From sequence record MH494197.1: a DNA stretch of 64,000 nucleotides; one strand, 5' to 3'. Of the stretch, positions 14,564 through 60,499 are shown in pieces (the first letter of the stretch is position 1; the number at the start of each line of letters is the position of its first letter). The DNA is from Escherichia phage CMSTMSU. Position numbers and translations under genes: made by a program. The notes beneath the pieces were generated by a model that saw only the letters and a list, made by a program, of their open reading frames with translations, was not told the origin of the DNA and made no database searches.

Positions 14564-15147
<584 letters not shown>

Positions 15148-15176: not shown

Positions 15177-15737
<561 letters not shown>

Positions 15738-15763
15738 TTACTTTGACAGTACAGGTTACCTTT

Positions 15764-16233
15764 TTACCCGAATTCAACTTTCTGGACATACGTTACGTTA
15801 CCCAAACGACGAACGAATGATTCCATTGCATCAACGTTGTTTTGGATAACAGTTGCGTTTGTGCCGCGACCTGTAGTTTTCATTACAATGTGTACTTGCT
15901 TACCTTCTTCTAAGAACTTACCTGCACTTTTCGCTTTAATAAGCAAATCATGCTCTTGAGTTCCGAAGTTGAATTGAATCTCTTTAGTACTAACAGTGTT
16001 TTGACGCTGTTTCTTCAAAGAGGCTTTTTCAGCCTGTTTCAATTCGTATTTGAATTTGTTCAGATCAGTGATTTTAACAGCAGGTTCATCACCTGCTCCA
16101 ATAACCACCAAATCCAGACCTTCAGTTTCTGCTAAAGCAAGTGCTTTAGAGATTGCCATGACTTCACTTTTACCTTCCGTAACTAGACGGACAGTTTTGC
16201 GGTGATTTCGTTATTGGCAATAATAGATTTCAT
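15764..16233 (-). CDS. infC: translation initiation factor IF-3-like protein, frameshifted near N-terminus
   Basis: ALALAETEGLDLVVIGAGDEPAVKITDLNKFKYE and KEIQFNFGTQEHDLLIKAKSAGKFLEEGKQV parallel both IF3 domains; N-terminal MKSIIANNEITAK(TVRLVTEG) is shifted by one base. Confidence 0.6.
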
Positions 16234-16256
16234 GTAATAAAAGCTCCGATATGGTT

Positions 16257-16496
16257 TTAATGTTCAATTCGATAGTAATTATAGCTAAGAACTAATGTTC
16301 TGTCAAGCACTATCATTATGTTTTTAATTGCTTCACAGATTGCTTGAACTTGCACTAGATAAGTTTTAGCAAACTCTGCTTGAGTACGCACACGTGGATT
16401 TGGTGCGTCTTTGATCATAAGTTCTAAATCATAAACTACTTTATCGAAAACACCCTTGTCTTCAATAATACGATCATAAAAGGTTTTGTCAGTCAT
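16257..16496 (-). CDS. hypothetical protein (79 aa)
   Basis: ORF only. Confidence 0.4.
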   Translation of the reverse strand: MTDKTFYDRIIEDKGVFDKVVYDLELMIKDAPNPRVRTQAEFAKTYLVQVQAICEAIKNIMIVLDRTLVLSYNYYRIEH

Positions 16497-24110: not shown

Positions 24111-24130
24111 ATATATTCCTTTATATTTGG

Positions 24131-24146
24131 AAAGATTAATCCGCCG
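24131..24146 (-). promoter_or_regulatory. intercistronic hairpin between nrdA and nrdB
   Basis: ATCCGC-CGAA-GCGGAT stem-loop between the nrdA stop (24161) and the nrdB RBS. Confidence 0.35.
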
Positions 24147-57477: not shown

Positions 57478-57659
57478 ATTTGTTTGCTTCTCCATGTGTT
57501 TTGAAAAAATGTCATCTCACAACCGCTGTAAGATGACTACATTGTATCACTACTTACGATTTTGTTCCAAAAACTTTTAAACAGGTTTAACAGGGAACGA
57601 AAACTTCTTCTTACTAAATTCAGATGTTGTTAGAGATGATAGCTCAAGAACATATGCTT

Positions 57660-58022
57660 TCAACTTAGAAACAGTTCTATTTCATAATCAGTTGCTACCT
57701 CAAGATCTATCGCCATCTTAATGTTATTCAACTCATTAATTGCTACGGTTCTTAATTCTTGGTGCTCAGATGATAGACGTTTGATCTTTTCATCAGTAGA
57801 TTCAACATAATCAGAAATTTTACTTCCATCATAGATTTTACCAACTACTTCATCTTCATCTCCATCATGCTCCAACTCAGAAACACTGTATCCATACGGT
57901 ACTAACAATGTTACATCATATGATGCTTGTGCAATATATCCATCGTCAGAGTACTGAACTTTTAAAGTATCTTGTCTGAATTCGCTTTGACAATCATACC
58001 AGTCAATACCCTCATCTGACAA
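57660..58022 (-). CDS. hypothetical acidic protein (120 aa)
   Basis: intact ORF immediately downstream of the fibre gene. Confidence 0.4.
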   Translation of the reverse strand: MSDEGIDWYDCQSEFRQDTLKVQYSDDGYIAQASYDVTLLVPYGYSVSELEHDGDEDEVVGKIYDGSKISDYVESTDEKIKRLSSEHQELRTVAINELNNIKMAIDLEVATDYEIELFLS

Positions 58023-58092
58023 TAGATAAAGAACATTATCGCCATGTTTTTTCTACTGGGATATATTTTTGAAATTTTTATACGTTTTCATA

Positions 58093-59717
58093 TTAAGACT
58101 CCACTACTACGTTAGTCCATACACCATTTACTAGTTTTTGTGTATATCTCCAACTCAAACCTTCAACGTGTGTACCTGAACTACCATTTACTGAAATAAA
58201 CAACCCATCCAGTGTAGCACCTTCTGGTACATAGTTCCAAGAAGAATCAGGAACATTTCGCGTAGTTGTTCTTTTACTTAAACGAACATCTTGTACAGCA
58301 CCTAGTGTTAAAGTTACGTTACCGTTTGCATCAGCGTTGTTACCGTTAATAGATCTGACGATGTTTTTACTAGCAACAGTTGCTGTGTTTCCAGAAATAG
58401 ACAATGATGCACCAGTTACTGATGGAGCATAAAGTACACCAGAAGAGTTAATTGTAACTTCAGAACCACCATTACTTCTCAAACGTAATGTATTTGTTGA
58501 TGAACTGTGATAAATTGCTGCACGTTCAGTAGTTCCTGCCGCGTTACGGAAGTAAAGTACCAAAGATGTGTCGTCTGAACGAATTGTTGCACTGTTAGCA
58601 ATACTCAATGAACCAGACATTGTATCACCAGTTTTCAGTACATAACGGGTGTTTGCAACTTTTCACTCAACGCAACGTTGGACTCAGCAATGTTATATAA
58701 GTATGCCACATTGAAGTGTGGTACGTCAATATTACTAATTCCGTGGCTGTGTGCTTGACCACTACCAACAGTGTTCGTAGAGCCACTGAAACTATGCACG
58801 TGATCAGGTGCTTCGTTAATGTTATTAATTACAGTTGGGATTCCGTTGTCGTTACTGGATGTTAACGCATTAAGACCACTTCTGTCCATACCTTTAGTGC
58901 CTGACTATGACCATGACGACCAGCAGCACCAGTAGTTCCACTGAAACTAAATGAGTGCGGTGGAAGTTGAGCAATTGATATAGCAGTGCCACTAATTGAT
59001 GCACTACTTGCAATCACACTATCAGTTTTAGTTACGCCTGATGTGGTAATGCCTTTCAAGTATGCTTCTTGGTTAAGATTTGGAACTTGTTTTGTGATTG
59101 TACCATTTTCACCAGCCCATGTCCACCACATTCCATCAGCAAAACACCAACCATCAGAAGTTTTCCACGGAGAACCTTGTGAACCATTACGACCACTTTG
59201 ACCATTAGTTACACCAGACATCTGTTCACGAATACTAGCAACAGTTTGTCCAGAAGTCAATGAGTACTGGTAATTGCACGGGCTTCATTGAAGTATAAAG
59301 ACCTGTTGGGCCAGTACCGCTACTTGATGGAATAGGGAATACGATATTTAAATTCGTACCACTAATGCTCGCACTTGGAACAGCACTACTACTATATGTT
59401 ACTGTTTCAACTTTTAAATTCAGTTTACGGTTCACTTCATCGAGTGAAATACGGATTGGTTCAAGAATTGTATCAGTATCATATACTGCAATCCAACTTG
59501 TACCGTTGTGGTATTTTAACACCAACTCATTTCTATCAAATACCATCGCACCTTGCTCACCTGCTGGCAATGCCTGTACTGGTAAAATGACAGAAGATGA
59601 ATTAAAACGAATAGGTCTTGGATTAGTTGGTGTACCACCAAGCACTATTAGTTCTAAAGATCCATTAGCACCAGTACTAGTCATAGTATCCAGTGGGTTA
59701 TTAAAACTTATGCTCAT
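58093..59717 (-). CDS. tail fibre protein (T4 gp12-like, collar-type His-rich motifs), frameshifted
   Basis: LPPHSFSFSGTTGAAGRHGHSQ and HVHSFSGSTNTVGSGQAHSHG repeats, RYVLKTGDTMSGSL fibre motif; four fragments. Confidence 0.55.
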
Positions 59718-60341: not shown

Positions 60342-60499
60342 AGTTTCACTAGCTTCATCATAACCAACTAAAGTTCCGTATGGAACATTAATCTCAATTT
60401 TGAGTACTGACTCTTTAAGTACTCTTCTTTCTTAAAATGTATACAGTTAACATTGGTATCCTCCATAGTTTTATGTATTTAGAATTTTAGTCAAAGAAA

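Follow-up and report, generated by a model that had tools for sequence, protein, structure and literature searches.

In this study, the 64,000-nt stretch of Escherichia phage CMSTMSU (record MH494197.1; the whole stretch is called the window below) was found to carry, on its minus strand, a gene that judged from its sequence encodes a full-length phage translation initiation factor IF3 in the real phage, whose N-domain and C-domain are joined by a Lys-rich helical linker. The gene is interrupted twice in the window, and both frame breaks are attributed to consensus errors of the assembly (one shortened homopolymer and one deletion at a Dcm site), not to biology. We consider it highly probable that the real phage holds an intact IF3 gene of 167 codons, the breaks being errors, and that its product is expressed early, binds the host 30S subunit and supplies or replaces IF3 activity. 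The sequence-only reading had assigned 15764-16233 to an IF3 homolog. The homology stood, but the interval is not a single intact ORF, and its lower boundary proved to be an artefact of a 2-base deletion; the frame breakage was overlooked in that reading, as was the fact that such IF3 genes had been annotated and treated in print before.

The IF3 gene starts with the ATG at 16233 on the minus strand and, after repair, ends with the stop at 15733-15735 (Table 1). As written, 15764-16233 contains two reading frames instead of a single ORF, and no uninterrupted reading frame is present for the IF3 gene as given in the window, which holds two frame breaks. The ATG at 16233 opens MKSIIANNEITAKLSV, which is 16 codons long and is followed by a stop at 16185-16183. 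The IF3 frame then picks up again in the -1 frame, and the pieces can be joined only via a -1 slip at GCA-AAA-C. The peptides KEIQFNFGTQEHDLLIK and FLEEGKQV quoted in the sequence-only reading were both recovered on the minus strand, inside the 131-aa ORF of the mechanical ORF list, while the third, EVRLVTEG, was not; the sequence has TVRLVTEG, located upstream of the ATG of that ORF and in frame with it.

Table 1. Positions of the IF3 gene, its lesions, its expression signals and the neighbouring genes in the window.
Feature	Position	Strand	Remarks
IF3 (infC-like) gene, corrected form	15733..16233	minus	167 codons plus stop; window copy 3 bases short
131-aa ORF	15764..16159	minus	IF3 fragment in the mechanical ORF list, from internal Met26 to a false stop
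Lesion 1	16195..16198	minus	A4 run, A5 in Turkey3, fEgEco12 and 121Q (alignment)
Lesion 2	15767..15772	minus	2 bases lost between 15769 and 15770, within a CCTGG (Dcm) site
Sigma-70 consensus promoter TTGACA-17 nt-TATAAT	16278..16306	minus	12/12 match, 45 nt upstream of the IF3 ATG
Shine-Dalgarno GGAG	16244..16247	minus	read from the sequence, 10 nt ahead of the IF3 start codon
ClpS-like adaptor gene	15177..15719	minus	begins 13 nt downstream of IF3; frame-broken by 3 deletions
KTSC-domain gene	14564..15105	minus	third cassette member; frame-broken; L001 1061-1606

Alignment of the window gene with three relatives (Turkey3, fEgEco12 and 121Q) revealed exactly two deletions, amounting to 3 bases. 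The first lesion moves the frame after codon 13 and leads to the false stop at 16185-16183. At the second, the window reads ACCC--GAATTC where the relatives have ACCCTGGAATTC and 121Q has ACCTTGGAACTC; the result is a false stop at 15764-15766 and the loss of the last 12 codons. After the 3 bases were restored, a protein of 167 aa was obtained, which was 98-99% identical to the annotated IF3 of Turkey3 and Ecwhy_1, 89% to that of 121Q, 68% to that of RaK2 and 53% to that of CBB. Its length equals that of the uninterrupted 504-nt CDS annotated as "translation initiation factor IF-3" in Turkey3, 121Q and fEgEco12, and 167 codons is the annotated IF3 length in all four relatives inspected.

The frame-repaired protein was recognized by the profiles of both IF3 domains. 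Pfam IF3_N (PF05198) matched residues 7-71 with 59.5 bits (cut-off 26.9, 3.8e-16), IF3_C (PF00707) matched residues 82-152 with 42.2 bits (cut-off 34.8, 8.1e-11), and the NCBIfam infC equivalog TIGR00168 aligned residues 6-152 to model positions 7-152 of 170 with 100.4 bits (cut-off 60, 9e-29). All three scores lie above the curated cut-offs, so the earlier claim of a phage-encoded IF3 homolog with both domains was confirmed. The 131-aa fragment alone still gave IF3_C at 5.2e-11 and a partial IF3_N match at 1e-09 (38.8 bits). Among phage families, phrog_9787 ("translation initiation factor") matched the repaired protein at 3.7e-66 over residues 1-167 of a 168-position profile. In the PDB sequence search the best matches were the IF3 proteins of E. 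coli (1.7e-16), G. stearothermophilus and T. thermophilus, at about 1e-16.

An AlphaFold model was built on a 20-sequence alignment. With a mean pLDDT of 85, it showed two alpha/beta domains linked by a long helix (residues 58-78), and the best real structures found by Foldseek against the PDB were 30S-bound IF3 (5lmn_X, TM 0.76). The C-domain, the fold of which was retained in the prediction, matched 1tig with a TM of 0.84 and an rmsd of 1.9 A, while the N-domain matched 1tif (TM 0.75) and 6o6d. Neither outcome that the sequence-only reading had named as refuting it, an absent IF3 profile match or a lost C-domain fold, was therefore seen.

The two lesions of the IF3 gene belong to a pattern that runs through the whole window. 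Over about 62 kb aligned with Turkey3, 283 deletion events were counted in the window vs 2 insertions, and 205 of these deletions fell in homopolymers of at least 3 bases and 43 at CCWGG. The rate is about 4.5 deletions per kb, which breaks nearly every ORF. Among 46 CCWGG sites, 43 were hit by a deletion, and homopolymers were shortened in 40% of the 5-mers, 87% of the 6-mers and 100% of the runs of at least 7 bases. All the essential genes checked were frame-broken, among them those for the major capsid protein, DNA polymerase, terminase, SSB and the RecA-like protein, as were those for primase, the DnaB-like helicase, ribonucleotide reductase and gyrase; the DNA polymerase gene alone had 10 frame-breaking indels. 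Deletions at homopolymers together with Dcm-methylated sites are the mark that consensus errors of long reads (nanopore-type) leave when they go uncorrected, and the CCWGG pattern implies that the source DNA was Dcm-methylated. Since the same pattern recurs at 43/46 CCWGG sites and in each of the essential genes checked, the lesions of the IF3 gene are regarded as artefacts, a verdict based on comparison with relatives.

Taken at face value, the early stop after 16 codons and the shifted C-terminus could mean that IF3 is truly a pseudogene in this isolate, with both frameshifts real and only fragments made. We regard this as extremely improbable: comparable lesions sit in every essential gene checked, they are nearly all deletions, and they track sequence context, not gene content, as the CCWGG and long-homopolymer counts show. 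Even less credible is that IF3 synthesis is regulated at GCA-AAA-C, through programmed -1 frameshifting of the ribosome or through slippage during transcription, by analogy with prfB and its +1 frameshift. At this A-rich, slippery-looking run, the pieces in the 0 and -1 frames do meet seamlessly and yield a perfect IF3 N-domain. Against this, the three aligned relatives have A5 and one continuous ORF, every Rak2-type relative among the matches listed gave a full-length uninterrupted match, the break has no heptameric X XXY YYZ slippery site, 40% of the runs of the A5/T5 type are shortened across the window, and a second, unrelated frame break is located at the 3' end of the same gene. A viable phage could not carry all such lesions, and both the pseudogene and the programmed frameshift were therefore rejected in favour of an intact gene damaged in the assembly. 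The consequence reaches beyond IF3: throughout this error-rich assembly, no ORF boundary, start codon or apparent "pseudogene" can be accepted as it stands.

The relatives of the window were identified by megablast as Rak2/121Q-type jumbo phages of E. coli, with 98.6% identity to Turkey3, 97-98% to eight other phages (95-99% band) and about 85% to 121Q, PBECO4 and Sharanji; the remark that IF3 is not a classical T4 gene agrees with this placement. Using tblastn, 96 phage records were found to contain an IF3 match, which in 83 cases was near full length. These included Asteriusvirus (121Q, PBECO4, Sharanji), Alcyoneusvirus (RaK2, K64-1) and Mimasvirus (CBB, XbC2), as well as GAP32, Serratia phage BF, Yersinia phage fHe-Yen9-04 and Salmonella phage Munch, with more distant matches in Vibrio phage 2.275.O and Agrobacterium phage Atu_ph07. 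The dN/dS of IF3 was 0.07-0.08 for Turkey3 or fEgEco12 vs 121Q, indicating strong purifying selection. The genes stand in the order Dda helicase, structural protein, small ORF, IF3, ClpS-like, KTSC, and the position of IF3 between the Dda-side genes and the ClpS-like/KTSC genes is common to Turkey3, 121Q, fEgEco12, RaK2, CBB and XbC2.

Upstream of the IF3 gene lies the only perfect TTGACA-17-TATAAT of the 64-kb window. Its hexamers are identical in 121Q despite a diverged spacer and are conserved in CBB as well, and promoter-like sites were found in the equivalent place in CBB, RaK2 and XbC2. The ATG and the GGAG 10 nt upstream of it are kept in Turkey3, fEgEco12, 121Q, RaK2, CBB and XbC2. The ClpS-like gene is probably co-transcribed with IF3, and the conserved promoter suggests a transcription unit for the two genes that is read by the host RNA polymerase, that is, early.

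The product of the ClpS-like gene was studied through its 181-aa ortholog in Turkey3. The Pfam ClpS match was below threshold (17 bits vs a cut-off of 23). The AlphaFold model (pLDDT 82.5) has a core (about residues 74-155) that matches E. coli ClpS (2w9r, 1mbu), and by Foldseek this core gave a TM on target of 0.8-0.9 and an E of about 1e-4 against the ClpS of E. coli and Caulobacter. The model adds an N-terminal beta domain (residues 1-70) and a C-terminal helix, and the protein bears a conserved C-terminal tail, LExLIRxDYPxD. A ribosomal protein resembling the bL12 C-domain was considered for this neighbour and rejected, the Foldseek E for bL12 being 0.07 vs about 1e-4 for ClpS. The third gene was assigned on its Turkey3 ortholog (Pfam KTSC, 6.2e-14). 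KTSC denotes a lysyl-tRNA synthetase C-terminal-like domain, and the orthologs of CBB and XbC2 are annotated as structural (virion) proteins.

RaK2, CBB, XbC2 and Vibrio phage 2.275.O share the order IF3, ClpS-like, KTSC. The Vibrio phage has a bS21 (RpsU) gene inserted between the IF3 and ClpS-like genes (L010 3015-3260), which in this distant relative connects the cassette with initiation and with functions of the 30S platform; the IF3 of this phage has an annotated TTG start and an RLHGR loop. In Atu_ph07, IF3 (annotated GTG start, RFKGR loop) is located directly downstream of a Clp ATPase gene (L011 1173-2995), and this adjacency echoes that of IF3 and the Clp system in the Rak2-like group. 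Since synteny among these related phages extends over the entire region, the adjacency in the cassette may be merely inherited and not functional.

Besides the small deletions, the window and Turkey3 differ at a few places. Two Turkey3 genes are absent from the window, at about 24124-24141 and about 60453-60493. One encodes a 257-aa hypothetical protein, with no Pfam match, between the ribonucleotide reductase alpha and beta genes, and the other a 365-aa DUF4379 treble-clef zinc-finger protein beside the gene for the major capsid protein; each resembles a mobile insertion. In addition, 57555-58433 of the window does not align to the C-terminal end of the Turkey3 tail-fibre gene (878 nt vs 446 nt), which is likely a host-range-determining replacement.

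Start codons were assessed in the syntenic region of Turkey3, where ATG opens 81 of the 82 CDSs and GTG the remaining one, TTG being absent as a start, and an SD-like core precedes 71 of the 82. The earlier impression that several genes of the window start with TTG thus has to be withdrawn: the apparent TTG starts arise because deletions, at about 4.5 per kb, break nearly every ORF in the window, and none is seen in the intact Turkey3. On the same counts, unusual phage start codons were rejected as a reason for the phage to have its own IF3. A phage initiator tRNA co-evolving with an altered IF3 was rejected as well, since no tRNA genes were found in the window and the sole CAU-anticodon tRNA of Sharanji is not an initiator. 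That tRNA, annotated as tRNA-Met(CAT) (L006 23374-23463), is of type II, measures 90 nt and has a long variable arm; its acceptor end shows a G1:C72 pair, and its anticodon stem is without the run of three G:C pairs; on these features it is not predicted to initiate. The next gene after it encodes a 92-nt tRNA-Ser with the unusual anticodon ACT (L006 23471-23562).

To compare the 30S-relevant residues, the phage protein was set against E. coli IF3 (the E. coli residue is given first). R25 (R16 in the phage), Y75 of the linker (Y63), D106 (D96), K110 (K100), G132 (G122) and R133 (R123) are kept; R112, R116, R129 and R168 are Lys in the phage protein; R99 (N89) and R131 (T121) are lost. K110 and Y75, with their roles in 30S binding and in the linker, are thus all present together with D106, G132 and R133. 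In the 20-sequence alignment, K100, Y63, D96 and G122 are invariant and R123 is nearly invariant. Charge is distributed much as in E. coli IF3, the N-domain, linker and C-domain carrying -3, +5 and +6 in the phage IF3 vs -2, +6 and +6 in the E. coli protein.

A departure is seen in the 129-RFRGR-133 loop of E. coli IF3, for which the window has KTTGR. All 23 of 23 phage clade members carry a non-basic residue (V, A, T, S, I or Q) at position 131, vs R or K in 100 of 118 remote IF3 representatives. RFRGR is a conserved functional loop and not a family-defining one, and its loss leaves the IF3 membership standing. In published work, IF3 with K110L no longer binds 30S and Y75N has an effect on the selection of start codons (PMC7145577), while R131 contacts and inspects the start codon, and R131P relaxes fidelity and permits non-AUG and leaderless initiation (PMC11775629). 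The KKGK of mitochondrial IF3 and the R131 to P/F/Y changes of Mycoplasma IF3 have been associated with the acceptance of non-AUG starts, of mRNAs without a leader or of atypical initiator tRNAs (PMC11775629). In the literature searched, no report of a clade-wide RFRGR change in phages was found. The proofreading of the phage IF3 may differ from that of the host IF3, because the start-codon-inspecting Arg131 is replaced throughout the clade, and part of the canonical IF3 function may be lost with R99 and R131 unconserved. As to the bias of initiation toward phage mRNAs raised in the sequence-only reading, the altered loop is the sole hint at the sequence level.

These data also bear on a different role, in which the phage IF3 acts as a competitor or decoy at the IF3 site of the host 30S subunit with altered proofreading in the absence of Arg131; host IF3 would be displaced and the choice of start sites or mRNAs changed, leading to relaxed fidelity or to shut-off of host translation. 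The clade-wide non-basic residue at a position known to inspect the start codon is consistent with this role, as are the retention of K110 for 30S binding and of Y75 in the linker and the strong host-type promoter, which implies abundant early expression. However, the genes of the phage give no indication of needing relaxed fidelity, given their ATG starts and SD-like cores; the only CAU-anticodon tRNA of Sharanji lacks the initiator features; and position 131 is non-basic in 18/118 remote homologs too. We consider this role unlikely. A related reading, to which we give an equally low probability, holds that the Rak2-like IF3 is a proofreading-altered factor that has kept 30S binding through K110, the basic C-domain and the Y75 linker but has lost Arg131, and that is made early with the ClpS-like adaptor; it may displace host IF3 and re-set start-site selection or ribosome availability for the phage, with the ClpS-like protein possibly delivering a host factor to ClpAP in the meantime.

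The preferred reading is that of a factor which supplies or replaces IF3 activity. The gene would be transcribed early by the host RNA polymerase, together with the ClpS-like gene and possibly the KTSC gene, and the early timing is probable on the consensus match of the promoter. By homology, the C-domain would bind the platform of host 30S subunits, where the protein would provide anti-association activity, subunit supply and kinetic control of the formation of the 30S initiation complex. Phage mRNAs, almost all with AUG and SD, would as a result go on initiating during infection. While homology, the predicted fold, purifying selection, group-wide conservation, the promoter and SD signals, the retained residues and the charge layout are established, we infer the timing, the 30S binding and any selectivity. 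Three features offer concrete, testable handles on the role of the phage IF3: Arg131 is lost in a conserved manner, the promoter is strong and of an early type, and the cassette with the ClpS-like and KTSC genes is fixed.

A phage IF3 is already known, being annotated in dozens of GenBank records of jumbo phages, grouped in a PHROG family and treated in several papers. Annotated entries include 121Q gp47 (AIT13944.1), PBECO4, Turkey3 (XMR01311.1), RaK2 ORF153 (YP_007007308.1), CBB_318 and GAP32, and the gene is discussed in the CBB genome paper (PMC5259590), the Sharanji paper (PMC11895373), Iyer et al. 2021 (PMC7824862) and Al-Shayeb et al. 2020 (PMC7162821). No experimental work on any phage IF3 was found in the literature searched. 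The present analysis adds little as a discovery, and its practical value is as a warning about an error-rich, nanopore-type assembly.

Compared with the IF3 of other Rak2-like phages (phrog_9787), the window gene is the same gene in the same position with the same length of 167 aa, and only the assembly differs, with 3 bases missing. Bacterial IF3 (E. coli P0A707; 5lmn, 8jsg, 1tif, 1tig) shares with it the two domains, the Lys-rich helical linker and, by prediction, the fold of the 30S-bound factor. The identity to E. coli IF3 is about 32%, and with a clade that extends across several host genera, a recent capture from the host was rejected. Unlike bacterial IF3, the phage protein has no basic N-terminal tail, and it contains 5 Arg vs 15 in E. 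coli IF3, most Arg having become Lys. In enterobacteria, infC typically has an AUU start codon that gives autoregulation, and the bacterial infC operon is thrS-infC-rpmI-rplT; the phage gene, in contrast, starts with ATG behind a good SD and adjoins the ClpS-like and KTSC genes outside such an operon.

Among phages, Atu_ph07 IF3 keeps the bacterial-type RFKGR loop, whereas the Rak2-like clade is without it. Mitochondrial (KKGK) and Mycoplasma IF3 resemble the phage protein in their altered RFRGR loop, which is a functional analogy only, as other residues are substituted there and neither non-AUG nor leaderless usage is evident in the phage. With the IF1, IF3, bS21, bS1 and bL12 of huge phages, the IF3 of the window shares the idea of ribosome factors of the initiation stage that would redirect host translation (PMC7162821, PMC7824862).
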